From positions 98,509-162,508 of the forward strand of contig JAKLFA010000003.1 of assembly GCA_022711395.1 (NCBI GenBank): 64,000 nt of DNA, written 5' to 3'. Made by a program: the position numbers and the translations under genes. This document shows, in pieces, positions 3,470 to 51,207 of the stretch. This DNA is from Candidatus Omnitrophota bacterium (lineage in GTDB: Bacteria > Omnitrophota > Gorgyraeia > Zapsychrales > JANLHA01). Numbering within the stretch: the stretch's first letter is position 1; every line of letters begins with the position of its first letter. Under the pieces are notes generated by a model that saw only the letters and a list, made by a program, of their open reading frames with translations, was not told the origin of the DNA and did not search any database.

Positions 3470-3574
3470 AATTTACCTTTCTATAGAATTTTTTGAAGAG
3501 TCTGTGTTATTATAATATGAATTTTTTTAGATAAAAATAAAAACCGTTTTTTATTCCGTAAAGGCCTCTCTGTC

Positions 3575-7573: not shown

Positions 7574-7707
7574 CCATGCTTTATGAAATCCATCCCCATT
7601 GACCTTACCCTGGGGATCGATTTATCCCATATTCTAACAATCTTTCAGCCCAATTCACCAATAAATTTTTTTGAGTTTTAAAACCCTTTTTACCACGAGC
7701 GCCGTGA

Positions 7708-8667
7708 TCATGTCCAGGCGCCGCGGAAATAGTCCCGGTTCTCCAGAAGGATCGACAGGTAATCGCCTTCCAGCTCGATCATGTCCCGGTCCTTCTTGCG
7801 CAGCCATTCCGCCATCCAGCCGAAACGGTTGGCGATGATGAGCTCAATGAAATACCGCCAGCTCACGGGCTGATAAACGCCGGACTCCCGCAGGCGCCTT
7901 AAAAAGGCCCGCACGCATTCAGCGTCCAGCGAACGGGGGTCTTCCATGCCTAAGCATCCCACCATGTTCGCCGCGTCATACAGTTCCGGTTTGGCCCCGC
8001 AAAATTCCCAGTCGATCACCGCCTTGATCCCATCTTCCGACCAGATGATGTTGAGCGGATGATAATCCCCGTGACAAAAAGCCGCGGGCAGGCCGGGATA
8101 CGCGCCCATGAAATCCTCTTTCAAAAAACGAACGGCCGCTTCGACCCTGAACAGATGTTTTGGGTCATGCTCCCGCATGTCCCCGATGATCCCGCGGATG
8201 TAGGACGGCAAAGAGAACACCTCGCTGCCGGCCGCCTCTCCCGCGGCCTTGCCGCAACGATGAAGCGCGATCAAAAAATCCGCCATCACGCCTCCCCGCC
8301 ACTCTTCAAAAGCGTAATCCGGGCGTTTCAGCGCCGCGCCGGTGACGAAAGGCTGAAGCTGCCACCACTTCATCTGATGCTCAACAAGATGCCCGCCGCC
8401 GGCGGCCTTCCGGTACGGAAGGACCTCCTTCAATCCCTGCTCCGCCAAAAGGTCCAGAAATAGCGCGATTTCTTTTTTCCGCTGACAAACACGGGCGGGA
8501 ACGTTTTCCAAGAGATACCGCCTCCCGTCCCGCGCTTCGATGACGGTCCTGAACTCGCTGCGCTCGGGGCTTCCGGCGATCTCAATATCCGGACGCAGGA
8601 CTTTCAGGCCAAGGCCCCAGGACCGCGTCACAAAAGAAAACCGTTCTAAATCATCCATACGCATCAA
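7708..8667 (-). CDS. Phosphotransferase family protein (APH/choline-kinase-like kinase fold)
   Basis: Brenner-type catalytic motif HGDYHPLNIIW and a downstream IDWEF (DxE) motif. Confidence 0.75.
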   Translation of the reverse strand: MMRMDDLERFSFVTRSWGLGLKVLRPDIEIAGSPERSEFRTVIEARDGRRYLLENVPARVCQRKKEIALFLDLLAEQGLKEVLPYRKAAGGGHLVEHQMKWWQLQPFVTGAALKRPDYAFEEWRGGVMADFLIALHRCGKAAGEAAGSEVFSLPSYIRGIIGDMREHDPKHLFRVEAAVRFLKEDFMGAYPGLPAAFCHGDYHPLNIIWSEDGIKAVIDWEFCGAKPELYDAANMVGCLGMEDPRSLDAECVRAFLRRLRESGVYQPVSWRYFIELIIANRFGWMAEWLRKKDRDMIELEGDYLSILLENRDYFRGAWT

Positions 8668-8715
8668 AATTTTTTCCTGAAGGCCGGAAGATCTTTCCGC
8701 TGTGTTTTATCCGGT

Positions 8716-9429
8716 TCACGCGATCACGGAACCGGAAAGCAGTTCCCTCACGCCGTTTTTGTCCTGCACGTAGATCTCCGGCAGGAATTCGATCGACTTG
8801 GGGATCTGCTTTTCGATGACCGCTTTCAGGCGCTGCTGCTGCTGTTCATCCTGACCGTTGAACAGCGGTTCCTGACTGAGGTCGTTCAAGATCAGGATGC
8901 CCGGGTCATGCGCGAACTCAAAATTCTTGATCAGGGCCTTCACCAGAAGGTCCAGAAAGCAGGGTTTGTCCTTAAAAACATCCACCGCGCTCTTGACCGT
9001 GATCTTCCCCCAGTCGACGGCGTTCAAATTCTGCAGGATCCCGTAAACAGAGGAATATTTCACCAGCCGTTTCCCGCCGGGAGGGCACTTTCTGGCGTGG
9101 TTGACCAGGACGCCCGCGATCTCCTGATGGTTGAAGGTCTTGACCTCTTTGTGGATCTCCATCGTCAGAAGCTCGAAGGTGTAGACGCCCCGCACGGCCG
9201 CGGCCGCCTGCGCGACGCTGCGTTTGATCAGGTCCAGAAACGCGTCCCAGATCACCTCTTCGTCCTTACGGATCACGTCCAGCGCCAGGATCTGGCAGGG
9301 CTGGTCTTCATGCACGGCGCGGAATTTTTTGACCTTGTTCTCAAAGCTGCCCTGATAACTGATCTCATCGAACAGAGGCATATGAAGGAACATCCTGGAA
9401 TGCTGGATCCCGCCATCGATAAGGTTCAT
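8716..9429 (-). CDS. Hypothetical protein (237 aa)
   Basis: ORF track. No recognisable motif. Confidence 0.45.
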   Translation of the reverse strand: MNLIDGGIQHSRMFLHMPLFDEISYQGSFENKVKKFRAVHEDQPCQILALDVIRKDEEVIWDAFLDLIKRSVAQAAAAVRGVYTFELLTMEIHKEVKTFNHQEIAGVLVNHARKCPPGGKRLVKYSSVYGILQNLNAVDWGKITVKSAVDVFKDKPCFLDLLVKALIKNFEFAHDPGILILNDLSQEPLFNGQDEQQQQRLKAVIEKQIPKSIEFLPEIYVQDKNGVRELLSGSVIA

Positions 9430-9463
9430 GCTCTTGCCCCCAATGAATAAACACTTCGTTGAA

Positions 9464-9700
9464 TTATGATGATTGATTAAACAAGTTTCTCTGCGTATAC
9501 GCCCCGCCCCCCAGCGCGGCGTTGAGCGCGCGCACGATCTTTCCCTGGATATTGGGCGTGACGCGCTTTCCTTTGCGAGCCTTCTGCAACTGCTTGTGCG
9601 TCAGCTGTTCGCCGGAACATCGCACCAGGTCATCGTTCGTTAATGACCGGCGCTCCATCAGCTCATCAAGCGGCTGTCTTTCCAATCCATCGTTCATCAT
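9464..9700 (-). CDS. Small hypothetical protein (78 aa)
   Basis: ORF track only. No clear RBS. Confidence 0.3.
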   Translation of the reverse strand: MMNDGLERQPLDELMERRSLTNDDLVRCSGEQLTHKQLQKARKGKRVTPNIQGKIVRALNAALGGGAYTQRNLFNQSS

Positions 9701-9726
9701 GACCTAATTGAAAATCGTTGTTCTGT

Positions 9727-10080
9727 TTATTGGACGAGGATCGCTGACTGCGGAGCCACATCGAACGTCCTTTTTAGCGGTTCCTCTGCCGAGGGCGGAT
9801 CAGCGACCGCGCGAGGCTGTTTTCTCACAGGGGCCAGCGGATCGGATTCAAAACCTTCAGCCCGCATCGCCTGAGCCGTATCCACCGCCGGAATGGGCCC
9901 TGTTCTTTTAACTATCCCGTCGGCATGGACCGTCCTCTTGGGCCCGCTCGGGCCCTTGACCTGGCTGGAAATATGATAGTTCAAGAAACCGAACGCCGCC
10001 ATCACCGCGACCGTGACCGAACATGCCAGAACCACCAGACGACCGTTCTTGTTTTCCATCATCAGTCTCCCGCCTTCCAT
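9727..10080 (-). CDS. Small membrane-anchored protein at the distal end of the minor pilin cluster
   Basis: Single N-terminal TM helix (RLVVLACSVTVAVMAAFGFL). It overlaps the PilX-like gene end by 19 nt. Confidence 0.45.
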   Translation of the reverse strand: MEGGRLMMENKNGRLVVLACSVTVAVMAAFGFLNYHISSQVKGPSGPKRTVHADGIVKRTGPIPAVDTAQAMRAEGFESDPLAPVRKQPRAVADPPSAEEPLKRTFDVAPQSAILVQ

Positions 10081-11756
10081 ACCATTTTGTCCGTGATGTC
10101 GTTCGAAAAAGCGACGAACGTGTTCAACGTCGGAAAATAGGGCGGCGCTTCCCCAAACCGCATGCGTTCATCATAAACAAAGTTCCGCCCGTATCCGGAT
10201 GTCGGCTGTCCCGTGGTCCCGTTAAATTGGCCGAAAGCCCCATAGCTGTCCGTGATCGCTCCGCCCAAAAGGGTCGCCGTTCCGCGGGGGGCCCCGCTGT
10301 CATAATTGTCGACCTGAAAGACCCCGTTGGTCGCCAGGACCGTCCCGTGGACCTGGACATTGTTCGGGGCCGAGGTGCCGATCCGCACATCCCCCTGCCA
10401 GGAAATGACCCCCAGCAGGTTCTCGGTCCCCATCGCCGACGGCGCGGAATAATCCGTGTCCCCCGGGGTTCCGACCGCCGGAGTATGATCCTGATATGTC
10501 ACATTATTGGTGATCACAATATCATCGGCGCTGGCGACCGTGACCTTCGAGTTCGCCTGGACCTGGCCGCGAAAGCTCGTGATCTGCCCGTCTACATAGA
10601 CCAGCGTCCCCACGTCATCGACCCCGTCCGGAAGCCCTTCATAAACGCTCGACTGTCCCGTGGCGCTGTCAAAGACGGTCGTCTGGTTGCTGTTCTTGTC
10701 AACCGTGACCCGTTTAAACGCGCCCCCCTGGGTCACCGTGTAGACCGGACGGCTGCTGCCGTCAACGGACATTTCGACCGCCCCATTACCCTTGACGTAA
10801 ATCCCCCCGGTCAATTTTCCACCCTGGCTGGGAACATAGATCCCCTGATTATTGTATTTTTTCTTTCCGGTCGCCTGATCGACCATATTCGCCTGTTTGG
10901 TGGATGAATTCAGGCTGACCGCCGGCACATTCCGGTCGAAATCATCCTGTAAGATGGGGACGTCTTTCGTCCCATTGTGGTCGCTGTTAAGCAAGACCGG
11001 CGATCCATCATTGTAAAAACGCGCGGTTGTTTCCTTTTGGGAGATCGCCTGCTCGAAGGTGCCGCTGGGGTTGAGGGCGAAATTGAAGCGTCCGTTGGTG
11101 TGGACCGGGCCGGCAAAATTGGTCTTATCCGTGAACCACACATGCGTCCCCGAAGGCATGGTCTGCTCATTGGTAAAAAGGGCGTATTTGGCGAAATTGT
11201 CGCGCTGGACCCGGACCGTGAAATCCCCCCGCAGGGTGATCGAGGAGGAGAACGCTCCGGACGTGCCGCTGGCCGTGATCGTGTAGGTGTAGGGAAAATC
11301 CCAGCTGTCCACGCCCACGGAATACGGGTCTTGCTTTTCGGTCATCAGGATCTCGTATTGATACGGTTTGTTGCCGAAGGACCCCCCTCCGTAATACATG
11401 GCCTGCTCACCGTCCTGGGTCAGGACCCCCACATTATTTTCACGGACAGAATAGACCAGCCACCCCAGCCCGTCTTTGGAGGAGACCTTGCTCATGGAAA
11501 AGCTCAAAACCCCGCTGGGGGCGGCCATGGAGATCGTGTCCATCAAAAAATCATTGATCAGCGTGTCGACCTGTTTGAGGGCGACCTGCGCGGCGCCGTT
11601 GGCCGTATAAAAAGCCCTGGTCATTTCCCGGTCCAAAGTGGCCATGTTATTTTCATGCACCGCGGCCAGCAGAAAAAGCCCGGTCAGGCCGAAAACAAAG
11701 AGCAAAAAGAACAAGGCCATGATGATCGCCATTCCCCGTTCGCTGGAAAGTCTCAT
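10062..11756 (-). CDS. Type IV pilus assembly PilX-like protein (PilX_N domain, 564 aa)
   Basis: N-terminus MRLSSERGMAIIMALFFLLFVFGLTGLFLLAA matches the PilX N-terminal motif (RG followed by a hydrophobic helix). An AGGAGG RBS lies upstream. The large Thr/Gly/Asn-rich extracellular domain is adhesin-like. Position is immediately after the PilW-like gene. Confidence 0.7.
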   Translation of the reverse strand: MRLSSERGMAIIMALFFLLFVFGLTGLFLLAAVHENNMATLDREMTRAFYTANGAAQVALKQVDTLINDFLMDTISMAAPSGVLSFSMSKVSSKDGLGWLVYSVRENNVGVLTQDGEQAMYYGGGSFGNKPYQYEILMTEKQDPYSVGVDSWDFPYTYTITASGTSGAFSSSITLRGDFTVRVQRDNFAKYALFTNEQTMPSGTHVWFTDKTNFAGPVHTNGRFNFALNPSGTFEQAISQKETTARFYNDGSPVLLNSDHNGTKDVPILQDDFDRNVPAVSLNSSTKQANMVDQATGKKKYNNQGIYVPSQGGKLTGGIYVKGNGAVEMSVDGSSRPVYTVTQGGAFKRVTVDKNSNQTTVFDSATGQSSVYEGLPDGVDDVGTLVYVDGQITSFRGQVQANSKVTVASADDIVITNNVTYQDHTPAVGTPGDTDYSAPSAMGTENLLGVISWQGDVRIGTSAPNNVQVHGTVLATNGVFQVDNYDSGAPRGTATLLGGAITDSYGAFGQFNGTTGQPTSGYGRNFVYDERMRFGEAPPYFPTLNTFVAFSNDITDKMVWKAGD

Positions 11757-39471: not shown

Positions 39472-39517
39472 CCGACATTCTCCATTTTGATACAGGGGCC
39501 GATACAGGCCCGGCGCC

Positions 39518-39772
39518 CTATCTCTTCAACATTCCCTTTATGATCATGCTGATGGCAAAACAGATCAACGCAATGAATATCACGGCCGGCCACGCGAACG
39601 GGCTCAAGAACGCCCTGGCGATCCAATCCAGGACGGTGCACGAATAGGGCTCGCCAAAATGATTCACACATGTGCCGAAAAACATGAAACCATTTTTCGG
39701 TATCCACCACATCAATTGGATACCCGTTATAGCTGCCAATGTGAGAGCGGCTGTTAATACTAACACGAACAT
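39518..39772 (-). CDS. Small membrane protein (84 aa)
   Basis: Two TM helices. GGAGGG RBS upstream. Confidence 0.5.
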   Translation of the reverse strand: MFVLVLTAALTLAAITGIQLMWWIPKNGFMFFGTCVNHFGEPYSCTVLDWIARAFLSPFAWPAVIFIALICFAISMIIKGMLKR

Positions 39773-39824
39773 GCTCTACCCTCCGTCTTCCATTTTCCGT
39801 TTTCTATCTTTCCTCTTCCCTCTT

Positions 39825-40430
39825 CTATTTTTCCTTAAAAGATGTCATGTGCCTTATCAGCTGTATATCTTCCAAAACAAAATTCCCCAGGTCCGCCGCG
39901 AGGGTCGCGATGCCCATCGAATGCTGATCATAAAGCCGGTAGGCCTTGCCGATCTTCTGAAGATCTGTCCGGTAAATGACCTTCACCCTGACCGCCTGGA
40001 TCTTATGAACGCTCGGCCTGCCGTCAAAGTTGCAGAAAAAACAGGACCCCGTCGGGATCACAAACAGAAAAAAATCCTCATCCCCGTATTTTTTGGTGAA
40101 GAACTCGGCTTTTAATTTGATCTTCAAATCCGCCTGGTCTTTGGAGGCGGCGAGCGTATAACCGGCGTCCTGAAGTTGAGCGGGCAAGACCTCATTGAGG
40201 ATATCGCATTGCTCTTGTGCGGATTTAAACAACGGTCCGCCGCAGCCTTTGAGCTCCCAATAAACCGACCGGATGTCCTTAGACGATGCGATCGTGGCAT
40301 CCTTCCCGATGCGATCCTCGGCCTGGAATGTGTAGGTGGCGCAGCTGTTATAAACCAACAGGCTCATCATCGCCAGCACCAGCGGCGACCAGATCAAATA
40401 TTTTTTCACCTTCATCGCTTTACGCTCCAC
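39825..40430 (-). CDS. Lipoprotein, hypothetical
   Basis: Signal peptide plus lipobox (LLVYNSC). Confidence 0.55.
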   Translation of the reverse strand: MERKAMKVKKYLIWSPLVLAMMSLLVYNSCATYTFQAEDRIGKDATIASSKDIRSVYWELKGCGGPLFKSAQEQCDILNEVLPAQLQDAGYTLAASKDQADLKIKLKAEFFTKKYGDEDFFLFVIPTGSCFFCNFDGRPSVHKIQAVRVKVIYRTDLQKIGKAYRLYDQHSMGIATLAADLGNFVLEDIQLIRHMTSFKEK

Positions 40431-40445
40431 ATTTCCATTGTGTTT

Positions 40446-40622
40446 TAATAAGACACTACGACACTATGACACTGAGACACTAAAAACCTTTAAACAAGAC
40501 ACTGTGACACTACGACACTCAGACACTAAAACCCTTAAAACCAGGAAACCAAAAATCTTTTTTCTTTTCACTTTTCACGTTTTCACGTTCATAGTGCCTT
40601 AGTGTCACAGTGTCTTATTTTA
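40446..40622. repeat. Octamer-repeat palindromic element, copy B
   Basis: Terminal inverted repeats AATAAGACACT/AGTGTCTTATT. Two blocks of GACACTNN octamers, each followed by AAAACCTTTAAAC-like spacers, plus an internal TTTTCAC(G) x3 tandem. Confidence 0.85.
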
Positions 40623-40643
40623 ATTAGGCCGCTGCCCCCGATT

Positions 40644-41441
40644 TTATATAATATCAAGAATCCGTTGAATTTGAGGAACGCCGTACTCTGCCCTTCCAGT
40701 AACAACTTTTAAATTCGGCAGCACTTCACACTGACCAAAACTATGAGTATGGCCGCACAATACCGTCATCTCAATCATAGGATGTTTTTCCATAAAATTC
40801 TTCAAGACATTTCCGACAACTTTACAAGAAAAAAACGGCAACCAATCATCTCCTGAAATTTGACCTTCATGCCAAGTCGCTTCTTTAAATGGCGGGACAT
40901 GAGTCAAAACAATGATCCTGTTATGCTTCTTTACTGCAAGAGGAAGAACCCGTCTAAAATGTTCTGCCGCTTCATTAGCCAATTCCTGAATAGCACTTAA
41001 ACGCAGGGTCCGATCCCTCGTCTTCAATTCATCGATCAAATAAAAATCATTCAGTTCTACAGAACTACGGTAAAAATCTCCAAACCGTCCATCAGCCCAG
41101 GAATCATGCCCGATCAAAACCGTGTGAGTCGATAAGCTTACAGAGTCGACTGCATTTAACCAAATTAAATTCTCAGAATTTTTTACCAGATCAGCAACCA
41201 TTGATCGGGTTCCCTTGATCGATCCCTCATAATAATCATGGTTACCAAGAACAAAATAGATCGGTCGCTTTAAAACAGATTCCGCATGCTTAAGATAATC
41301 AATGATCTTATCGGCTTCGCCAATATCTCCCGAAACAAAAAAACAATCAACCGTTTCCTCAGATACCAGCAACAGGAACTCTTCCAGTTGATCGTGTTTT
41401 AAAAAATTCAAATGAATATCTGTTAACCAAGCCGCATTCAT
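40644..41441 (-). CDS. Metallophosphoesterase (calcineurin-like)
   Basis: DIHLN, GDIGE, GNHDYY and GHTH motifs. AT-rich codon usage marks it as part of the foreign island. Confidence 0.8.
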   Translation of the reverse strand: MNAAWLTDIHLNFLKHDQLEEFLLLVSEETVDCFFVSGDIGEADKIIDYLKHAESVLKRPIYFVLGNHDYYEGSIKGTRSMVADLVKNSENLIWLNAVDSVSLSTHTVLIGHDSWADGRFGDFYRSSVELNDFYLIDELKTRDRTLRLSAIQELANEAAEHFRRVLPLAVKKHNRIIVLTHVPPFKEATWHEGQISGDDWLPFFSCKVVGNVLKNFMEKHPMIEMTVLCGHTHSFGQCEVLPNLKVVTGRAEYGVPQIQRILDII

Positions 41442-41493
41442 TTTTATTAAAATCCCGCCCTCATGTACGTAAAAAGCTCTCCAGCCGTCTCTT

Positions 41494-42285
41494 CTATGTT
41501 AATTGTGCGATCAATTCTTGAAACCGTTCAAAAATATCCGTCCTTAAATCATCAATAAATACATCCGGTCCATTTTCTTTTTCAACCATCAAACAACCGG
41601 GGCTTGAATTACGCTTAAAATATTTTTTCAAATTCTTTGCCGCTTGCGGCAACTCACCCCTTTTATAATATTGATGAAACTCTTTCAAAATAACATCAAG
41701 GTCGGGAGCATAGCGCAATATAAAGTAGATATAAAAAAGATCTTTCGCTTGTTTTAATTCGTCCTCACGCTCAACAAACACCGCTGATTTATGATAAATA
41801 AAAGCTGAGGGTCTAGGACATAATAAAGAATGGGTTTTATCTCTTCGTGCATCTTTGACGCTGACTGGCGCTGAATGACTCAATAAGAAATCGAAGTCGG
41901 GAAGTTTGTTAAGGCTCATTTGAACCCCAACGAGTTTTTCGACATTCTCTACCGGAATATCCGTCGAACTGATAAAGTCAATGCGAACTTTCCCGCTCTT
42001 AAATAAAACAACCGGATACATCCGATTCATATCTAGATGGCGTTCAGTATAATCAAAGTCCGACAAAATCTGAAAGATGGTTTTCTTATGAACTCGCGGC
42101 TTCTTTGGGCTCACACCAAAATCAATATCCAATGTTGTAACCGGGTTAACAGTAAAATTTTTCCAGATAAAGCGGGGATAAACATACGCCAACCATCCCC
42201 CAACAAGCGTAAGCTCACCGAGATATTCATTCAAATCATCAAGCACACAAAAAAATAAATCTTCTGACTCCATATTATTGGCCAA
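41494..42285 (-). CDS. Nucleotidyltransferase-fold protein, AbiEii-like toxin candidate
   Basis: LTLVGGWLAYVY...R...TLDIDF is an NTase-fold G-G...D-x-D pattern. It overlaps the upstream partner gene by 11 nt. Confidence 0.45.
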   Translation of the reverse strand: MANNMESEDLFFCVLDDLNEYLGELTLVGGWLAYVYPRFIWKNFTVNPVTTLDIDFGVSPKKPRVHKKTIFQILSDFDYTERHLDMNRMYPVVLFKSGKVRIDFISSTDIPVENVEKLVGVQMSLNKLPDFDFLLSHSAPVSVKDARRDKTHSLLCPRPSAFIYHKSAVFVEREDELKQAKDLFYIYFILRYAPDLDVILKEFHQYYKRGELPQAAKNLKKYFKRNSSPGCLMVEKENGPDVFIDDLRTDIFERFQELIAQLT

Positions 42286-42958
42286 GGGTTTTTCCTTCCT
42301 GTTCCAGCTTTTCTTTTAAGAACTCCGACTGCTCTCTCCCCCTGGGCTGAAAATGATATAAATCTAAAAATAACTGCAAATTGGAAACAACAGAATATCC
42401 TTCGATCTTTTGACTGTTTGCAAAAGTGCTTGTTTTATAATACGGCTCAATAAAATGCACATTTCCCCCGGAAACAAGCTCTTTCAAATCAAGTTTCTGC
42501 CGGACATTAAGAATATCCTTATCCCAGTTATCCGTTCTCAAATAAATGTATACTTGATCTGTTTTCACATAAGACGTTAATAAATTAGCACCTGAATGAA
42601 GCGTCAGCGCATAGGTATGATTATTAAGAACGGCTTTCATTTTTTTCAATATATCTTGGTCGTGAGTGTAATACGTCTTGACTGTATTAAGCTCAAACTT
42701 ATAAAATTGCGTCCATTCTTTGATAAGCTTGTCAGGGTAAGTCAACACTGTATGACTCTCTGGTCCTTTTTTGATACGCTCCGCATATCCCTTTTGAGCG
42801 ATGATCTCTAAAACCTGCTGTGTTAATCCGAGACTAACCCCTTCAGGCCCGTTGAAATCTCGCACGACCCATTTGCGATCAGGCTCTTGAAGCATCTTCC
42901 TAAGAATTAATGTCGCCTTATCAGCAAATATGTTCTTTTTATATGTCTTTTTGTTCAT
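42275..42958 (-). CDS. wHTH regulator, AbiEi-like antitoxin candidate
   Basis: Likely start MNKKTYKK at 42958, with a wHTH-like N-terminus (ATLILRKMLQEPDRKWVVRDF...GVSLGLTQQVLEII). Nested operator palindromes lie immediately upstream. Confidence 0.4.
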   Translation of the reverse strand: MNKKTYKKNIFADKATLILRKMLQEPDRKWVVRDFNGPEGVSLGLTQQVLEIIAQKGYAERIKKGPESHTVLTYPDKLIKEWTQFYKFELNTVKTYYTHDQDILKKMKAVLNNHTYALTLHSGANLLTSYVKTDQVYIYLRTDNWDKDILNVRQKLDLKELVSGGNVHFIEPYYKTSTFANSQKIEGYSVVSNLQLFLDLYHFQPRGREQSEFLKEKLEQEGKTLGQ

Positions 42959-43018
42959 AATGTTCACCAATCTATCAATGTTCACTCTTTAGTGAACAAT
43001 ATATAATATATGAACATT
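42959..43018. promoter_or_regulatory. Operator-like nested inverted repeats
   Basis: Half-sites TGTTCAC at 42961 and 42979, and GTGAACA/TGAACAT at 42992 and 43011. TGTTCAC-TCTTTA-GTGAACA is a perfect 7-bp IR. TATAAT-like sequences fall between the sites. Confidence 0.55.
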
Positions 43019-43022
43019 AATG

Positions 43023-43184
43023 TCAAGCGCTCTGGACATACTCACCGTTCTGCTCTTCCTGCACGATGCGCCGGCCCGTTTCCCAGGCAAACCTGACCTG
43101 CGCCTCCCGCGCGTTGGTGTACAGAGCGGAAATATCCTCGACGAGTTTTTGGAACCTGTTTTTAGCTGGAAGGTTGGTGGGCAT
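43023..43184 (-). pseudogene. Truncated N-terminal remnant of a DUF1016 (YhcG-like PDDEXK nuclease) gene
   Basis: A GC-rich 162-bp segment inside the AT-rich island. It encodes MPTNLPAKNRFQKLVEDISALYTNAREAQVRFAWETGRRIVQEEQNGEYVQSA, matching the conserved DUF1016 N-terminus (..NxxLvxLYWxIGrxI..eq.G). It stops abruptly at the AT-rich operator sequence. Confidence 0.5.
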
Positions 43185-43201
43185 GGGCGGTCACCTGTTA
43201 T

Positions 43202-44404
43202 TTACGAATATGTTTCCTTTGTAAAACGCCAATCATATCCATAAGCTTTTTTACGATACCCATATCCTGTTGTACATGGTTTGCGCAAACAAACAGAACT
43301 AATTGATGAAACACAGTTCGTATTTTTAACTTTGCCTTTTTCTACTAGCCACTTTGCCGCCTCATGCTGGCTTGAAAATACTTTCAAAATATTCCCCGAC
43401 TGCAAATCAATCATACAAACTTCTTTACTTGTTTTCGCTGCAGCAGCTTTAGCTCTTTTTTGTGCATTTGCTTGCGCTTCTTGAGAATGTTTATTCTTCC
43501 ATTCTTTTAATGATGCTTTACGCTTTTCATTAGCTTTTTGGCTTGTACGCGAACTTATTAGCTTTTCCTGCCAAGCCTTATATTTTTCTGGGTTTTCTTT
43601 AGCCCACTTTTTAAAGCCAGCTTTTCGTTTTGCTTGGCATTCAAGAGTTTTAATTTTTTCGTGACTTTTCTTTTTTGCTTCAGCATATTCCTTGGGGTTT
43701 TCCTCTCTCCACCTTACAATACGCTTACTAAACATTTCACGATATTTTTCTGAGCTCATGACTTCTTTTATTCTTCGACTACGCGCGCGAAGTTCTGGTG
43801 TATCACCCGATCGAAAAGCTTTTTTGGATGCTTCAAGCATCGGTTTAAACTGCTCAGGATGATTTTTTATATACTCACGTTTCTTTTCGCTTGTTTCTGC
43901 GATGGATGGATGCTTAGTTGTTCCACCGCCGCCAGCAACAAGATTAAGGCATTTTTCATCAGACAAAAGGTCTTTATCGACAATAGTCGCTTCAAGTTGT
44001 TCTGCTTCCTCAGCGGTCTCACATTTTGCGATATAATAACGCGCAAATCGATCTTTATATTTTTTAAACTTATTTACAAATTTTAGTCCAGATCCTTGAT
44101 ATCGTTTTAATTGAGACCATGTGGGCCGATTAGCTTTACCAATATAATATTCGCCGCTTTCCCAGTTTATTTGAATATAAATTACTCTATAATAACCATC
44201 ACTTTCATTTCGTTTACGAACAAGTTCACTTGGGGTTAAAACATCAAACCAACGGTTTTTTATTGCAATACGCTGTTTATTGAAACCCCATTTTGCTGAA
44301 TTACGTTTTGAATCAAAAAAAGCGGACAGATTGTCATCCAAAGACAATTCAGCCGGATTAAATTCCTGCCAAACTCTGATATTTTCATTAATTGTTATTA
44401 TCAT
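43202..44404 (-). CDS. GIY-YIG homing-endonuclease-like protein with a C-terminal IENR1/NUMOD-like DNA-binding repeat
   Basis: N-terminal YYRVIYIQINWESGEYYIGKA (GIY...YIG). Lys/Glu-rich linker. C-terminal KVFSSQHEAAKWLVEKG...TTGYGYRKKAYGYDWRF matches the intron-encoded nuclease repeat pattern (F-x-S-x-x-EAA...G-Y-x-W-x-F). Confidence 0.6.
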   Translation of the reverse strand: MIITINENIRVWQEFNPAELSLDDNLSAFFDSKRNSAKWGFNKQRIAIKNRWFDVLTPSELVRKRNESDGYYRVIYIQINWESGEYYIGKANRPTWSQLKRYQGSGLKFVNKFKKYKDRFARYYIAKCETAEEAEQLEATIVDKDLLSDEKCLNLVAGGGGTTKHPSIAETSEKKREYIKNHPEQFKPMLEASKKAFRSGDTPELRARSRRIKEVMSSEKYREMFSKRIVRWREENPKEYAEAKKKSHEKIKTLECQAKRKAGFKKWAKENPEKYKAWQEKLISSRTSQKANEKRKASLKEWKNKHSQEAQANAQKRAKAAAAKTSKEVCMIDLQSGNILKVFSSQHEAAKWLVEKGKVKNTNCVSSISSVCLRKPCTTGYGYRKKAYGYDWRFTKETYS

Positions 44405-44574
44405 GCTTTAATTGAAATAAAAGTGACGCGCACATTTATTGACTCATTTAAAAAAGGTGTACGTCACGCGTCCCGTTTATTATTTATTCATTTTATCTCG
44501 TGGCTCCGGATTCTTCTGCATAAGCCCATTGAATTCGTCTGCAGTCTTACAGACCAATTTTTTTACCCTTCATT

Positions 44575-46239
44575 TTATTGCTTACACCAAGCGGCGATGG
44601 TATTAATATTCTTCTTTATTGCCGCAGAGATTTGATCATCGCCAAGCCCATCAATTTTAATTAAGACACTGCTTGCCTTATGATCAGCATTCCGAAAAAT
44701 TCCAAGTTCTTCTTCAAATGATTTATCGAATACCGCTAAAGCATCCTCCATAATCCAAGAACACGGTCTTTTGTTATCAGACTCGTCTTTCTTTCTACCA
44801 TCTAGGTCAAAAACGGTAAAATATGGTATTCCAAAGGCTTTGCATAATAGCTGGTAATATGGGATCTTCGACTTCCCATTTGCACTGATAATGGTCACGT
44901 CACAAAGACTTTTATTAATCTTATTAGCCAAAACCGGCATTCCATATTTCTCAGCGGGTCCTTCAACAATTAAACATTTACGGGCAAAGAATATTTGATT
45001 ATCCTCACGAAAGAATACTGTTTTATGCTGATGAAATTTTTTAATCTCATCGAGGTGCTCCGACACTTCCTTGTTTTCTATAACCTCATTCAGCTTTTCT
45101 GCCTCCGGCGTATTCTTAAAATCTCTGTTGAACCGACTTATTGAATCCCAATTGGCGATACTTATAAAACAATCCGATTGCGTTGTGTAAACTATTTGAG
45201 ATGATGATTTTTGAAATTCCTTGAACAATCTCGACTGCAATTGAGGATGCAAATGAAGTTCCGGCTCATCTATAAGAAATACTATTTCCCCTCTCGAAAG
45301 ACTACTAATAATCTCTAATAAAAAATAAGCCAATAAAATGGAGATACCGGAACCGAGGTTTTTCTGGTCAATTTGATTCGACCCATCGCGTAATGAGAAA
45401 AAAGATTTTAAAAACGGCTGTTCGATATCCAATAAACTCAGCTCTAGATTTTCGCACTCAATACCAACAAAATCTTTTAGCTTCTCTCCTAGCGGCCGCA
45501 TAATGCGGTCATTTTTTGGATCAATCACAGTGGCGATAACCTGGCTGTAAAAATCTTCCCACTTCTGCACGATATCCACCTGAACCCATTTATTCCTGTA
45601 TCGCCAGTTTAAATCCTTTATTATTTTACTCAAAAGCGTATTAAAACCGGTACTTGCTTCACTTTCTCTGTCACGATCAAAATAAAATATGTTTGGATAA
45701 TTTATGAATTCATTCTGCAGTGATAACCTTTGCTGTGTGAACTTAAAGACAGAGTTAGCTGTTTTACGCGGAGATTCATATCCTTGATCAGTCTTAAGCA
45801 CTTTATCTGGGATTTTGGTTGATAGCGCATCTAAATAAATGCACTGAAGCTCCTCTTTAGAGTTATACAAAATTGGTACAGCATATTTCTCTGTCACGAA
45901 CGGATCAGACAATGCTTTTCCTCCCGCGGCCTGTTTTCTTCTATGCGCTGAAAACACGACGCTTCGACACAAAATATCCTGAGTGGTATACCCATCGGGT
46001 ATCTTACACAAAAAGGGCTTATCGAAATATACTGTTATCCCCAAATCTCCTTCGTCGCTATTATTGAAATCTTGCTCAGTGATATATGCATATCCTGATG
46101 AAGTTGCTAAATTAATAGCTTCTAAAATCGTGGTTTTGCCACAACCGTTTTCTCCAATTAAGGCATGACATTTTTGAAAATCGACATCAACTTTCTTAAA
46201 ACATCGAAAATTATTTATTTCTATTCTAGATATTGCCAT
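44575..46239 (-). CDS. OLD-family ATP-dependent endonuclease (ABC ATPase plus Toprim), apparently stand-alone (class 1-like)
   Basis: Walker A GENGCGKTT. ABC signature and Walker B region (VFLIDEPELHLHP). C-terminal Toprim (LIVEGPAEKYG ... FTVFDLDGRKK). Confidence 0.8.
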   Translation of the reverse strand: MAISRIEINNFRCFKKVDVDFQKCHALIGENGCGKTTILEAINLATSSGYAYITEQDFNNSDEGDLGITVYFDKPFLCKIPDGYTTQDILCRSVVFSAHRRKQAAGGKALSDPFVTEKYAVPILYNSKEELQCIYLDALSTKIPDKVLKTDQGYESPRKTANSVFKFTQQRLSLQNEFINYPNIFYFDRDRESEASTGFNTLLSKIIKDLNWRYRNKWVQVDIVQKWEDFYSQVIATVIDPKNDRIMRPLGEKLKDFVGIECENLELSLLDIEQPFLKSFFSLRDGSNQIDQKNLGSGISILLAYFLLEIISSLSRGEIVFLIDEPELHLHPQLQSRLFKEFQKSSSQIVYTTQSDCFISIANWDSISRFNRDFKNTPEAEKLNEVIENKEVSEHLDEIKKFHQHKTVFFREDNQIFFARKCLIVEGPAEKYGMPVLANKINKSLCDVTIISANGKSKIPYYQLLCKAFGIPYFTVFDLDGRKKDESDNKRPCSWIMEDALAVFDKSFEEELGIFRNADHKASSVLIKIDGLGDDQISAAIKKNINTIAAWCKQ

Positions 46240-46301
46240 TACGCCCTCTTATTATTGAACTTATAAAAATAAAGGCAACGGACACATTTGCTACGTTCCC
46301 T

Positions 46302-46652
46302 TTATGGCCGCTTTTCCATCCTGCCTTTGACCAGCTTGGCCGGATACTTCCTGGCGTTCTTCTTTATCTTCCTGAGGACCGCCTTTTCCAGGTCGATCCC
46401 GTATAGGCCGCAAAACCCCATCAAATAAATGGCCACATCCGCGACCTCATCCTCGATCTCAAATTTTTTGCGTTTGTCTTTCAAGATCTGAGCCGCCTCT
46501 TCAGCCGAATTCGTCCACTGGAAATGCTCCATGAGCTCCGCCGCTTCGATAGACAGGGACATGCTCAAATTTTTTGGGGTATGGAATTTTTCCCAATCCC
46601 GTTCTTTAACGAATTTTTTTATTTTATCCTGGATCAAAGATATTTCATTCAT
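46302..46652 (-). CDS. MazG-like nucleotide pyrophosphohydrolase
   Basis: EAAELMEHFQW and EIEDEVADVAIYLM match the MazG EExxE/D motifs. Start taken at the Met with a GGGGGAA RBS (the track ORF extends to 46712). Confidence 0.8.
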   Translation of the reverse strand: MNEISLIQDKIKKFVKERDWEKFHTPKNLSMSLSIEAAELMEHFQWTNSAEEAAQILKDKRKKFEIEDEVADVAIYLMGFCGLYGIDLEKAVLRKIKKNARKYPAKLVKGRMEKRP

Positions 46653-46776
46653 GCAATTCCCCCGATCAGAAAATAATAAAGGCCAGGGAGCTCCTGGCCA
46701 CAATACAGTCATTACGTTTTTTATATCTCAACTTTAAAAAAGCGTCCGTCATGTTTTTTGTTTTTTCCTATTTTTT

Positions 46777-47916
46777 TTAGGAATCATATTCACTCTTAAA
46801 ACTCCCTAGAGAATGCGTATTAATTTTATAAACAGACTCTTCTATTTTATAAATAATAACATTATCAGAATTAAATTCCTGCAGATGGCTTAATGTTGCA
46901 ACCTGACCCGGAACCAATTGAAGTTTTTTTCTTAAAATCCAATTCCCCAATTCTTTATTGGGATCGCTCATTAAAGCTTTACATCCCTGCTGACAAACCT
47001 TTGCTGTCATTTCCCTCCCATCATCTGTAATAAGCTTAAACTTCTGGTCTTTCGGCGGGAAAAAGCCGGGCTTCACCTGATGGATAATCTGTGGAATCGG
47101 AATATAAACTTCATCCGGATGACGAGACCGTCCGCCCGCATTCCATTGGTTAAGGCCGGATTTCAATGAGACTTTTCCTGTTCTTGTACTGTAAAGAGGC
47201 AGAATCACATAATCTGTTTTCTTGATAAGACTGCGATCTACAGTATCCGGCTCACTAAGTTCATCAAGGGCTGCATTTAAAAGCGCCTTGTTTAAAAACC
47301 CGTTAATTTCTACAGCATCAAAATATTGCGCATAACTAAAATCCATAAGAAGAACACTCTTGGATATATTGAATGTATATTTAAAATACTTATCTTCAAA
47401 AGCCACTGACCCCCGTTTTTTTTCGATCCCTCTAATTGAAGGAAGATCAATAGGGATCATAGGACACTCTGCGATATATATTTTCCCTACATCCCGAACA
47501 ACATAATGATAAACGGTGTTTTTAAGGCCGTACGCCTTTACCGTTTCTTCTATCCGCTGATTCCTATATAAAGCAACCTGCTTTATTAAATGATCATCAT
47601 TTGTTAAATCTAATGGGAACTTCGCGCGGTTGTTAAACTCAGCCACTTTTTCTGTCCCGCGCATTGCTGGTTTTGCCAAAAAAGTTTTTACGCCTATCCC
47701 ATCTGTGATCTTAACAGCATCAACCGAAACATCTTTTCGGGTTTCGTCAGAGGCTTCAAAGGCTTTGCAGAAAATTTTTTCAACAACCCGATAAGGCAGA
47801 TACGGTTTTGTATTTCCGCTGAATATTGGACTAAGCTGAGCTGTGCCTAATATAAGCTGTTTGTATTTTTTTCTCTGAGGGGATGATTGTTTAGGATAAA
47901 AGGGGTCAAAAAACAT
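46777..47916 (-). CDS. Putative type II restriction endonuclease (partner of the adjacent C5-methyltransferase)
   Basis: 379 aa with no methyltransferase motifs. Position is immediately downstream of the dcm-like and vsr genes in the same orientation. AT-rich. Confidence 0.5.
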   Translation of the reverse strand: MFFDPFYPKQSSPQRKKYKQLILGTAQLSPIFSGNTKPYLPYRVVEKIFCKAFEASDETRKDVSVDAVKITDGIGVKTFLAKPAMRGTEKVAEFNNRAKFPLDLTNDDHLIKQVALYRNQRIEETVKAYGLKNTVYHYVVRDVGKIYIAECPMIPIDLPSIRGIEKKRGSVAFEDKYFKYTFNISKSVLLMDFSYAQYFDAVEINGFLNKALLNAALDELSEPDTVDRSLIKKTDYVILPLYSTRTGKVSLKSGLNQWNAGGRSRHPDEVYIPIPQIIHQVKPGFFPPKDQKFKLITDDGREMTAKVCQQGCKALMSDPNKELGNWILRKKLQLVPGQVATLSHLQEFNSDNVIIYKIEESVYKINTHSLGSFKSEYDS

Positions 47917-47950
47917 TATCCAGCTGTTCTTTCCATTAGAGCGTTCTGCT

Positions 47951-49012
47951 TCATCCTGCAGCCGGCTCTAATACATTTTGAACTCGATAGGATCCGGCAG
48001 CATTCTGATATTTCATATCTAAAGCAATCCTAATCTTTTCCGCGATACGGCGTATTACAGGAACACTCACAGAATTTCCCATCTGCTTATAAAGATGCGC
48101 TGAGGCTATATCGGGAAGACGAAAATCATCGTCAAACCCCTGCAGGCGGGCACATTCACGCGGAGTCAGCTTGCGAATGCCGTAATTATCACGGACAAGC
48201 GGAACATTATGGCCTCCGGTTCCCATATTTGCTGTCAAAGTCGGGCATACTCCGCTTTTATTCTCCCGAAGATAAACCCTCCGCCACTGATAAACAGTAT
48301 TCTTAGATTTCATCTGTTCATTCAGAACTTTATAAAAACCGCATTTCTCAGTATAGTAATATTTTCTGTCAACTTTCTTTTGTTCTAAAATGTCTCGACG
48401 GACCGTTTTTGTTAATTCACTCTTTTGAGGAAAAGAAAAATTATCAGAACAACTCCCGTCTCCTCTTACCCATGCAGATTCGTCTTGAAAACCGACAATA
48501 TAAATTCTTTCTCTGGTCTGCGGAATATTGCCGTACTCCATTGTATTAAGAACTTTCGGAATAAAAGAATAGCCCGTATCTTTAATTGTTTCTTCCATCA
48601 CGCGGAATGTTCTGCCGTTGTCATGGGCAATAAGATTTTTGACATTTTCTAAAAGAAATGCTTTCGGCTTAAGACTTGTAATTATTTTCATCGTTTCAAA
48701 AAACAAATTACCCCTGGAGTCTTCAAATCCCTTTCTGTAACCGGCAATAGAGAATGCCTGACATGGAAAACCGGAGGTAATAACATCCGTCTTATCAAGA
48801 AAGCTCATCTTCTGATTAACCAAATCATGAACATCGTCTGGAAAGAATTTATGGGAAAAATTGGATTCGTAAGTGATCTTTGCATTCTTATCAAATTCAT
48901 TTGCCCATAAAAGCTGAAAACCTGCCTGTTCAAAGCCTCGGCAGATCCCGCCTATTCCTGCAAATAAACTTCCGACCGTATACTTTGCTTTTTTTACCAT
49001 GTTATGATTCAT
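47951..49012 (-). CDS. dcm: DNA (cytosine-5)-methyltransferase
   Basis: Motif I FAGIGG, motif IV PCQAFS, motif VI ENV. Confidence 0.9.
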   Translation of the reverse strand: MNHNMVKKAKYTVGSLFAGIGGICRGFEQAGFQLLWANEFDKNAKITYESNFSHKFFPDDVHDLVNQKMSFLDKTDVITSGFPCQAFSIAGYRKGFEDSRGNLFFETMKIITSLKPKAFLLENVKNLIAHDNGRTFRVMEETIKDTGYSFIPKVLNTMEYGNIPQTRERIYIVGFQDESAWVRGDGSCSDNFSFPQKSELTKTVRRDILEQKKVDRKYYYTEKCGFYKVLNEQMKSKNTVYQWRRVYLRENKSGVCPTLTANMGTGGHNVPLVRDNYGIRKLTPRECARLQGFDDDFRLPDIASAHLYKQMGNSVSVPVIRRIAEKIRIALDMKYQNAAGSYRVQNVLEPAAG

Positions 49013-49070
49013 TTCAATCCTCCATTTTAAGGGGGAAATTTAAGGAATGAGGATTGAAGCATGTTACCAC

Positions 49071-49505
49071 TCATATGTGTGGAATGTCAATACTTTTCTT
49101 TTCTTCAAACAACGGCTTTAATTTAGAAAAAACTTTTAATTCCTTTTTTACTTCACACTCCCAAACTGTAATAATACGCCAACCATCTTTTTTTAACGCT
49201 CGTTTATTTATTTTATCGCGTTCTAAATTTCTTTCAAGTTTCGGAACCCAATATTTTTTATTTGTTTTTGGTACATTTGCCCGGCGGCATCCTTTATGGC
49301 AATGCCAAAAACATCCGTGAACAAAAACTACAGTTTTATATTTAGGAAGAACTATATCCGGCTTCCCGGGAAGACTTTTTACATGAAGCCCGAATCTAAA
49401 TCCCACCCTATGAAGAATACTTCTAACTATCTTTTCGGGCTTCGTATCCGCGGCCCGTATGCGGGACATATTCCAGCTTCTTTTTTCTCCGCTCAAATGG
49501 TCCAT
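49071..49505 (-). CDS. vsr: Very short patch repair endonuclease
   Basis: SWNMSRIRAADTKPE N-terminus. FVHGCFWHCH zinc motif. Length 144 aa. Confidence 0.9.
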   Translation of the reverse strand: MDHLSGEKRSWNMSRIRAADTKPEKIVRSILHRVGFRFGLHVKSLPGKPDIVLPKYKTVVFVHGCFWHCHKGCRRANVPKTNKKYWVPKLERNLERDKINKRALKKDGWRIITVWECEVKKELKVFSKLKPLFEEKKSIDIPHI

Positions 49506-49620
49506 ATGTCAGTTCATCACTAATATTTTCTGTATGATTATACCATTAACAAACTGCTGTAAAATCGTTTATTCTTTATTTCGAGATGTCTGCCATATTA
49601 AATTCATCAGATTTTTCCTG

Positions 49621-51207
49621 TCACCAATCAATCGGAAAGTAGTCTTTGAGGAATTTGCCGCACCAGTGTTTGCCCGTGAGGATGCCGCTAAAGAACGGAT
49701 CGCACACCCGCGCCGCGCCGTCCACAATGTCCAAGGGCGGCTGAAAATCATGCTGCTCCTGCTTAAACGCTGCCAGGGCGGCCGGATCTTCGTCCGTCAC
49801 CCAGCCGGTATCGACCGCGTTCATGTAGATGCCGTGCCCGGCCAACTCTGCCGCGGCCGTGTGCGTCAGCATGTTGAGCGCGGCCTTGGCCATGTTGGTG
49901 TGGGGATGGCGTTCGCTTTTTTTAAAACGCAAAAACTTCCCCTCCATGGCCGACACATTGACGATGTGTTTCTGCCCCGTCACGTCGCGCTTCATCATCG
50001 GGATGAGCCGGTTGCACAAGACAAACGGCGCGATCGCGTTCACCAGCTGAAGCTCGAGCATCTCAGCGGTCGGAACTTCGCCGAGCTTTAGCCGCCAGCT
50101 GTTGGTCGCACGCAAATCCACCTGCTGAAGATCCGCGTCGAGCTTTCCGCTGGGGAAAACTTCCTGAGTGTTCAGCGCATGATCATACGCGTAGGGGATC
50201 TGCGAGAGTGCGGCGGATGCGCGCAACCCTATCCCCGGCGTTCGGCCCGTCCAGCTGACCGGCAGGCCTTTCTCTGAGCTGAGGGCGTCTTTTGAAAAAG
50301 ACGCGAGCCTTTGCTTGCATTCTTCAAAATCATCCATCAACGAAAGCGCCTCGATCGGAATTTCAAAATGCGCCTTCGCTTCATTGGCCATCAGGTGTTT
50401 ATAAAACCCCGGCGGGCGCCTCACGGTCTGGGCCGCGTTGTTGATCAAAATATCCAGGCGGTCATATTTTTGTTCCACAAAAGAACAGAAGATCTCCACG
50501 CTCGGTGTATGCCGCAAGTCCAGCCCGTAGATGTGCAAACGGCTTTTCCAGTTTTCAAAATCCTCTTCTTTGGAATACCTGAGCGCCGAATCCACCGGAA
50601 AGCGTGTGGTGGCGATGACCCTCGCTCCGGCGCGCAGCATCATGAGCGTCGCCTGATATCCGATCTTTAAACGCGAGCCAGTGATGAGCGCGACCCGCCC
50701 CTCAAGAGAGGCGGTCTGAAAGCGTTTTTGATAATTCAACTCTGCGCACGACGGGCACATGGAGTCATAAAAAAAGTGGAGTTTGGTGTACTCGGCCTTG
50801 CAGACATAACAGTTGCGGGCGGATTTCAGCTCTGGTGGTGGCGCCTTCGGGGGCTGCGGCTCCTCCGGCGTTTGCGGGTCGTGGGCCTGCGCCTCTTCAA
50901 ACGCAATTTGTTTGGGCGCGCTGAACACTTTGGCCTCGCGCGCTTTGCGGATGCCTGTGTTGGCGCGGGCCATGCGTTCGTGCGTGCGGGTGCGCTGGCG
51001 TTTGGCTTTGCGGATCTCGCGTTTGCGCGCGACGATCTCATCGCCGTTGGGCTGCGCGAGCCTCCCTGCGGCTTTCAAAAGCTGGATGCGTTCTTTTTCA
51101 GATAATTGAGCGAGCTTGGAGCTGTCTTCAACTAAACCTTCAAGGATCGAAATGCATTCCGCGATTCGTTCAGGTGATGGAGTGATCGGATTTTTTGGGG
51201 TGGTCAT
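49621..51207 (-). CDS. SDR-family oxidoreductase with an N-terminal charged/zinc-ribbon extension
   Basis: [25 protein letters not shown] Rossmann motif and NNAAQ. N-terminal CYVCK...CPSC. Confidence 0.75.

Follow-up and report, generated by a model that had tools for sequence, protein, structure and literature searches.

A DCTPP1-like pyrophosphohydrolase gene recurrently linked to C5-cytosine methyltransferases, and its chance neighbour, a Class-1-like OLD nuclease gene, in an Omnitrophota defence island

Eukaryotic DCTPP1 (RS21-C6, XTP3TPA) removes methylated and other C5-modified deoxycytidine triphosphates (dCTPs), preventing their misincorporation (PMC13291643, PMC4491611). Type II restriction-modification (R-M) cassettes of the Dcm-Vsr kind, which make 5-methylcytosine (m5C), hold together a methyltransferase, an endonuclease and the repair endonuclease Vsr, which limits the mutagenic cost of m5C; an EcoRII-C/methylase/Vsr module has been described in Burkholderia phages (PMC3483164). 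Among OLD family nucleases, the Class 1 enzymes that have been characterised are nickases or exonucleases that depend on ATP and disturb the replication of phage DNA (PMC12392090, PMC10568477), Vibrio cholerae OLD (Vc OLD) being a DNA nickase that blocks replication of the phage genome (PMC12392090). Here we analyse a 64-kb stretch of an Omnitrophota contig (JAKLFA010000003.1; hereafter the window, numbered from its first nucleotide). It contains a low-GC island of some 9 kb, at roughly 40.5-49.5 kb, with a GC content of about 0.38 where the flanks have about 0.55, and in this island a MazG-like gene resembling DCTPP1 lies between an m5C R-M cassette and an OLD gene. A preliminary description had proposed that the OLD and MazG-like genes, which are adjacent on the same strand and 62 nt apart, might form a functional two-gene module. 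Nine island genes, all on the minus strand, were identified from the open reading frame (ORF) list with Pfam and PADLOC scans, and five of them concern us first:

49071-49505, minus strand: Vsr very-short-patch repair endonuclease, first gene of the m5C cassette (Pfam Vsr 1.9e-29; PADLOC Vsr 8.3e-30)
47951-49012, minus strand: C5-cytosine DNA methyltransferase of the Dcm type (Pfam DNA_methylase 6.8e-89; PADLOC MTase_II 2.9e-115)
46777-47916, minus strand: NgoFVII-like type II restriction endonuclease (Pfam RE_NgoFVII_C 2.4e-18; PADLOC REase_II 3.5e-75, nearly full length)
46302-46652, minus strand: predicted MazG-like (PF12643), DCTPP1-like all-alpha deoxynucleoside triphosphate (dNTP) pyrophosphohydrolase of 116 aa (Pfam 4.6e-14, PDB homology, synteny)
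44575-46239, minus strand: Class-1-like OLD family nuclease of 554 aa, an ABC ATPase with an inserted dimerisation region plus a Toprim domain (Pfam, PADLOC, alignment, PDB, AlphaFold2/Foldseek)

The Vsr, C5 methyltransferase and NgoFVII-like endonuclease genes are contiguous on one strand, constituting a type II m5C R-M system with Vsr. We assign the MazG-like gene to this cassette rather than to OLD because its relatives are syntenic with Dcm and Vsr and show no linkage to OLD. Among relatives at least 50% identical to the window protein, five of the six other contexts adjoin a PF00145 methyltransferase, four of these also with Vsr, so that the count including the window is six of seven. The six contexts, with the identity of their MazG-like protein to that of the window, are:

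L086, 75%: EcoO109I-like endonuclease, C5 methyltransferase and Vsr, then the MazG-like gene, which overlaps Vsr by 32 nt
L087, 74%: methyltransferase, Vsr and MvaI/BcnI endonuclease, then the MazG-like gene after a 10-nt gap
L091-94, 72%: methyltransferase, a 376-aa unknown and Vsr, then the MazG-like gene
L114-116, 59%: NgoPII endonuclease, Vsr and methyltransferase, then the MazG-like gene
L095 (viral), 50%: MazG-like gene first, with a 4-nt overlap with an orphan C5 methyltransferase
L118-120, 67%: no methyltransferase nearby

The linked methyltransferases are without exception C5 enzymes, and the four Vsr cassettes all end with the MazG-like gene. The cassettes that bear it are distinct R-M systems: across the window and the four Vsr cassettes the methyltransferases share 25-33% identity and the Vsr proteins 31-54%, against 57-78% for the MazG-like proteins, and the endonucleases are unrelated (NgoFVII-like, EcoO109I-like, MvaI/BcnI, NgoPII and one unknown). 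By a rough Fisher test, Dcm adjacency in five of six close contexts compares with one of 22 distant MazG loci (p = 3.5e-4) and with one of 79 OLD-seeded loci (p = 1e-6). The window cassette differs from known Dcm-Vsr cassettes in having a DCTPP1-like fourth gene, which most Dcm-Vsr loci do not have. In the incomplete literature that was searched, we found no description of a DCTPP1- or MazG-like gene tied to Dcm, Vsr or R-M, although the association may be known to curators of restriction enzyme databases.

The product of this fourth gene is, as far as its sequence indicates, a bacterial homologue of DCTPP1. That the gene upstream of OLD encodes a MazG-like nucleoside triphosphate (NTP) pyrophosphohydrolase, as first described, is borne out by its PF12643 match (52.9 bits against a cut-off of 27), and its PDB matches are an archaeal pyrophosphatase (4qgp, 3.5e-27) and mouse and human DCTPP1 (1e-18 to 1e-15). 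The metal ligands of the ExxE/ExxD motifs (E36, E39, D68, E69 and D72), which are kept from the homologous all-alpha MazG-like fold of DCTPP1, are invariant among 30 homologues. The cytosine pocket of DCTPP1 consists of a Trp47/Trp73 sandwich with His38, His51, Phe41, Phe50, Asp98, Ile101, Tyr102 and Tyr129 (PMC13291643); in a phmmer alignment to the mouse protein, nine of these ten nucleobase-pocket residues are conserved, His51 and the two stacking tryptophans among them, with DCTPP1 F41, W47, F50, H51, W73, D98, I101, Y102 and Y129 corresponding to window F14, W20, F23, H24, W46, D72, I75, Y76 and Y103. The window protein differs from DCTPP1 in being bacterial, in lacking, at 116 aa, the N- and C-terminal extensions of the eukaryotic enzyme, and in being encoded in R-M cassettes. 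It belongs to the same all-alpha NTP pyrophosphohydrolase superfamily as phage MazG and the E. coli-type MazG (PF03819, with tandem domains, encoded downstream of mazEF), but it has a single domain, scores 19.1 bits with PF03819, below the cut-off of 22, and is not accompanied by mazEF; nothing ties it to the role in guanosine tetraphosphate (ppGpp) metabolism proposed for cyanophage MazG.

Linkage to OLD was assessed by running hidden Markov models for OLD, MazG, Dcm and Vsr on the six-frame ORFs of every fetched locus. In the 91 OLD-seeded loci (L001-L085 and L121-L126) no MazG-like gene occurs within about 6 kb, and no OLD gene occurs in the 39 MazG-seeded loci; OLD orthologues of 45-93% identity, found in eight independent contexts, all lack a MazG-like neighbour. 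No PADLOC model, including those of known nucleotide-depletion defence systems, matches the MazG-like protein at E <= 0.01. Gene-neighbourhood analysis, which the preliminary description had named as a check on its two-gene module, therefore reveals no conserved co-occurrence in the sample drawn: the module is unsupported, and the two genes are neighbours by chance. They would have come to adjoin because defence genes accumulate in islands and because, as shown below, this OLD clade tends to sit 3' of R-M operons. The proposed new two-gene defence system is thus not borne out, which spares cloning effort on the wrong pair; of greater interest is the repeated association of a DCTPP1-like enzyme with systems that methylate cytosine.

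The account that we consider probable, with some room for doubt, is that the island is a mosaic of separate defence units. One unit would be the type II m5C R-M cassette of Vsr, C5 methyltransferase and NgoFVII-like endonuclease, with the MazG-like gene as its accessory fourth member; the other would be OLD, acting as an autonomous single-gene Class 1 nuclease. From the resemblance to DCTPP1, the MazG-like enzyme is predicted to hydrolyse 5-methyl-dCTP, and perhaps further C5-modified dCTPs, yielding the monophosphate and pyrophosphate. Methylated nucleotides set free when DNA is turned over or restricted would thereby be kept from random re-incorporation at non-cognate positions. Such an activity would complement Vsr, which repairs the T:G mismatches that arise from deaminated m5C; deaminated m5C at non-cognate positions would lie beyond Vsr repair. 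If this account is true, the MazG-like enzyme would be a fourth type of R-M component beside methyltransferase, endonuclease, and Vsr or controller proteins, as well as a prokaryotic counterpart, and possible evolutionary source, of the function of eukaryotic DCTPP1. Removal of 5-methyl-dCTP, if it takes place, would imply that recycling of methylated nucleotides is a real cost of bacterial DNA methylation.

Several observations weigh against this account. The synteny sample is small and non-random: there are six independent close contexts besides the window, and all 12 context look-ups were picked for long contigs. One of those contexts (L118-120) has no methyltransferase nearby despite 67% identity of its MazG-like protein; plasmid and viral relatives at 34-49% identity were never seen beside a methyltransferase (nor was one annotated in any of the four plasmid contexts inspected), and the plasmid and phage collections, which yielded relatives only in that range, added no close contexts. 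Among 80 Vsr-seeded viral loci, 70 of them with Dcm, the MazG-like gene is found in none, so there it is at most a rare accessory. In the protein, DCTPP1 His38, one of two proposed cytosine selectivity residues, falls just outside the aligned block, and an ungapped extension places Ile11 opposite it; the nearly family-invariant KYTxY C-terminal tail is missing, and the two closest relatives end equally short. Codon composition also sets the gene apart. The GC content at third codon positions (GC3) is 0.62 for the MazG-like gene, 0.25-0.41 for all other island genes (0.30-0.36 for the R-M genes and 0.35 for OLD) and 0.68-0.70 for the host flanks; since its GC3 is unlike that of the R-M genes and OLD, the MazG-like gene has not long been travelling with either. 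A smaller GC3 excess of the MazG-like gene over its neighbours recurs in every other locus examined. Finally, the gap of 124 nt that separates the endonuclease and MazG-like genes in the window holds a terminator-like hairpin. The two hairpins that flank the MazG-like gene are:

46681-46699, minus strand: GGCCAGG-AGCTC-CCTGGCC hairpin followed by a T-run, a possible intrinsic terminator or attenuator between the endonuclease stop and the MazG-like start (terminator scan)
46264-46305, minus strand: weak AU-rich hairpin and U-run overlapping the MazG-like stop codon, suggestive only (sequence, consensus scan, fold z = -1.3)

Folding of the intergenic RNA recovers the upstream hairpin in the minimum-free-energy structure, at a z of only -1.5. 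It is GC-rich and lies inside an extension of the mechanical ORF (46653-46712), and this bears on the span of 44575-46712 originally given to the pair: both genes within it are real, but it ends at an in-frame ATG of the mechanical ORF that lies upstream of the true start, and the MazG-like gene begins with the ATG at 46652, from which 30 homologues align. Downstream, a promoter-like site (46278-46251, consensus scan) followed by a good ribosome-binding site (AAGAGGG) precedes OLD. The terminator- and promoter-like signals between the MazG-like gene and OLD are not statistically strong and are at best suggestive.

A competing explanation, which we find unlikely, treats the MazG-like gene as a housecleaning gene in its own right, perhaps host-derived and functionally tied to neither neighbour, beside which R-M cassettes and other defence genes were inserted. 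Its GC3 is near that of the host flanks and far from that of the other island genes, and hairpins stand on both sides of it; it belongs to a very large family of more than 5,900 homologues, many of which stand alone or in unrelated contexts; and it is terminal in every cassette, abutting a host gltB-like gene in L091/L092. Against this, the five other methyltransferase-linked contexts contain C5 methyltransferases that are only 25-33% mutually identical, and they are spread over mobile elements, a virus and a defence island. Moreover, in three of these five at most 10 nt separate the MazG-like gene from a cassette gene, or the two overlap, and the adjacent methyltransferases are all C5 enzymes, none of them N6 or N4, a preference for which an insertion hot-spot would not select.

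A less probable alternative, to which we give little credence, keeps the MazG-like gene in the R-M cassette but makes its product an anti-phage component that destroys the 5-methyl- or 5-hydroxymethyl-dCTP with which certain phages substitute for cytosine so as to evade restriction, restoring sensitivity to restriction or blocking replication. This role would agree with the synteny with m5C-type R-M systems, with the DCTPP1-like pocket, and with the description of DCTPP1 as acting on a range of C5-modified dCTP analogues (PMC13291643), and it would explain the occurrence of the gene in defence islands and mobile elements. The virus-encoded gene beside an orphan C5 methyltransferase in L095, however, fits pool sanitation for a methylating genome better than it fits host defence, and the absence of the gene from all 80 viral Vsr loci also speaks against an anti-phage role.

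Inhibition of GajA, a Class 2 OLD nuclease, by NTPs is relieved upon their depletion. An analogous OLD-MazG defence module, in which the pyrophosphohydrolase would deplete nucleotides either as the effector or to release OLD from nucleotide inhibition, might be suggested by the adjacency of the two genes in a defence island, by the listing of MazG domains as predicted, unvalidated defence domains (PMC13092281), by the replacement of a dNTP-degrading effector by a MazG-like domain in some PUA-HAD systems (bioRxiv 10.64898/2026.01.15.699771), and by the description of GajA as nucleotide-sensing (PMC8136825), but it is highly improbable and already refuted at the level of conservation by the zero counts from both OLD and MazG seeds, which extend to the closest OLD orthologues (93%, 82% and 61% identical), and is further contradicted by the missing PADLOC match, by the disparity in GC3, by the hairpin with U-run and promoter-like site that separate the two genes, and by the nature of the MazG-like protein, a bare 116-aa enzyme of the housecleaning type with no sensor domain.

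A MazG-bearing cassette also lies in a defence island in L114, where the NgoPII-Vsr-Dcm-MazG cassette is followed downstream (5533-10362) by further genes of the defence type, one AbiJ-like, one with DUF4145 and two of the ThsB/TIR kind.

In the mosaic account the second unit of the window is the OLD gene, for which the closest described systems are the Class 1 OLDs (phage P2 Old, Thermus scotoductus OLD (TsOLD), Vc OLD and E. coli YbjD). The protein matches the Pfam families AAA_15 (2.4e-28) and OLD-like_TOPRIM (7.4e-16), and its best PADLOC matches are the GajA and Old models, at about 1e-36, the GajA models scoring level with Old. The Walker A motif GENGCGKT (29-36, with K35) and the Walker B and D-loop DEPELHLH (324-331, with D324/E325) are invariant or nearly so among 37 homologues, as are the Toprim residues E426, E430, D478, D480, S507 and E509, which fit, as a motif pattern, the two-metal site of TsOLD (E377, D381, D431, D433, S478 and E480; PMC7049728). 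The presence of all OLD hallmarks in this 554-aa ATPase-Toprim protein, as originally claimed, is thus upheld by its domains and conserved motifs. The closest solved relative by sequence is TsOLD (PDB 6p74; phmmer, 2e-27), at only about 20% identity, compared with 1e-5 for GajA, and the GajA and PtuA matches are limited to the P-loop region. An AlphaFold2 model built from the 37-sequence alignment (predicted local distance difference test score, pLDDT, 81; predicted template modelling score, pTM, 0.82) likewise has 6p74 as its top Foldseek match (E 1.5e-26, template modelling score, TM, 0.60), the match to GajA being ten orders of magnitude weaker (1.6e-16, TM 0.52). By fold as well as by sequence match, the architecture is therefore nearer to the Class 1 than to the Class 2 structure.

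ABC ATPase and Toprim chemistry is common to the window OLD, GajA, the retron-associated OLDs of Class 3 and AriA/AriB of PARIS (Class 4), and each of these other systems was considered. As for Gabija (Class 2), the gene downstream of OLD encodes a 400-aa GIY-YIG-like protein and not a GajB-type UvrD/PcrA/Rep-like helicase, and no such helicase is found among the nine island genes. For Class 3, there is no reverse transcriptase domain in the nine genes and no msr/msd RNA was found by Rfam; for PARIS, the ATPase and Toprim domains are here fused in one 554-aa protein, and no DUF4435 gene is nearby. The Pfam scan of the nine island genes, with its lack of helicase, reverse transcriptase and AriB-like (DUF4435) genes, and the Rfam search agree with the preliminary description that no UvrD/helicase, retron or AriB partner accompanies OLD, and its class-1-like assignment is upheld by the best match to TsOLD in sequence and fold and by the unrelated genes downstream of orthologues. 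Homology and modelling thus point to a stand-alone, Class-1-like, single-gene OLD nuclease. By analogy with the characterised Class 1 enzymes, it may act as a Toprim nickase or exonuclease, regulated by ATP, and damage phage DNA as it replicates.

The contexts of OLD orthologues are consistent with a gene that functions alone. Orthologues at 93, 82, 61, 60, 59, 57, 46 and 45% identity provide eight independent contexts, and with the window included the neighbours differ in all nine. Scans of genomes and metagenomes with the OLD alignment added at least 71 loci, which matched on generic P-loop and Walker B patterns, are nearly all distant and serve as background only; among the matches listed, L028 is the sole orthologue. 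A conserved downstream partner was sought and rejected: genes of 400, 385 and 469 aa follow OLD in three contexts and are mutually unrelated. Because no MazG-like gene lies near the orthologues and the downstream genes are unrelated, the OLD clade is without a conserved partner.

What does recur near these orthologues is R-M. They are often the final gene of an R-M operon, following a type III system after a 3-nt gap in L073 (3199-7662), overlapping a type I system by 4 nt as the last gene in L075 (4520-7659), and lying in a type I R-M region in L072 (1-7665); in the window (44575-49505) OLD stands at the end of the type II R-M genes, and in L028 (2874-12054) the orthologue precedes a type III methyltransferase and is thus first. 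The R-M systems that adjoin the orthologues have N6/N4 methyltransferases and no MazG-like gene. With Dcm counted, five of nine orthologue contexts adjoin R-M, compared with two of 47 distant loci, a comparison that is biased in that the phmmer seeds were taken from orthologue loci and divergent methyltransferases were missed. A review states that Class 1 OLD genes are not near other defence genes (PMC10568477), whereas this clade is found in defence islands and often directly after R-M operons. The end-of-operon position, seen with type I, II and III R-M, may help to find the triggers of Class 1 OLDs.

A sister clade has a similar placement. Its proteins in L001 (5992-7455), L029 (2564-4030) and L030 (5983-7350) have about 487 aa, are about 33% identical to the window OLD, and match AAA_15 but not Toprim; in all three loci examined the gene lies directly after R-M methyltransferases. 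In L029 it is fourth after Dcm, R.HinP1I and Vsr, the slot that is taken elsewhere by the MazG-like gene.

A broader generalization, which we put forward tentatively and lean slightly against, has two parts: a conserved bacterial DCTPP1-like clade would be a dedicated accessory of C5 methylation, clearing 5-methyl-dCTP both for Vsr cassettes and for orphan viral methyltransferases; and, separately, the OLD clade and its AAA_15 sister clade may form a second line of defence that is coupled to R-M operons irrespective of their type. Under the first part, mobile bacterial m5C cassettes would hold both upkeep functions that eukaryotes apply to methylated genomes, repair of deaminated-m5C mismatches and sanitation of methylated dNTPs.

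Two further sets of orthologue loci show the surroundings in which this OLD clade is found. In L072 (8272-10634, 93%) and L073 (9786-10750, 82%) OLD is followed by the same backbone of DUF5659 and primase-polymerase/D5 genes, and the upstream R-M cargo is of type I in the former and type III in the latter, a pattern that suggests a mobile element carrying OLD and swapping R-M modules. In L082-L085 a ubiquitin-like system (Multi_ubiq, Prok-E2, and a JAB + ThiF protein; 1981-4012) lies about 2 kb upstream of the 60%-identical OLD orthologue, in a region that is phage-like or conjugative-element-like.

The remaining genes of the island lie downstream of OLD:

43202-44404, minus strand: GIY-YIG homing-endonuclease-like gene, 400 aa (Pfam GIY-YIG 5e-4, below cut-off; PADLOC homing endonuclease 8.4e-6)
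42275-42985 and 41494-42285, minus strand: AbiEi_2 / NTP_transf_8 pair with an 11-nt overlap (Pfam)
40644-41441, minus strand: calcineurin-like metallophosphoesterase (Pfam)

The 400-aa protein has a weak GIY-YIG N-terminal domain and a long, lysine-rich, repetitive middle section with repeated NPExYK-like units, and its C-terminal segment appears from the sequence to resemble homing-endonuclease DNA-binding modules; situated between OLD and the next pair, it looks like a free-standing gene of the homing-endonuclease kind. In the region 40644-42985, the overlapping AbiEi_2 and NTP_transf_8 genes look like an AbiE-like toxin-antitoxin pair, with the metallophosphoesterase gene next to them; neither the pair nor the metallophosphoesterase has a significant PADLOC match. 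There is no tRNA gene in the 64-kb window, no integrase was identified in the island, and no flanking direct repeats were seen at its ends. Positions 39500-50500 have no Rfam match at gathering score; the sole match in the island, a sub-threshold microRNA model on an inverted repeat at 40447-40623, is taken as spurious. This interval, which separates the metallophosphoesterase gene from a gene for 201 aa at the island's left boundary, contains two arrays of four GACACTNN units with 8-nt spacing, and an inverted partial GACACTNN copy lies about 50 nt beyond the arrays.

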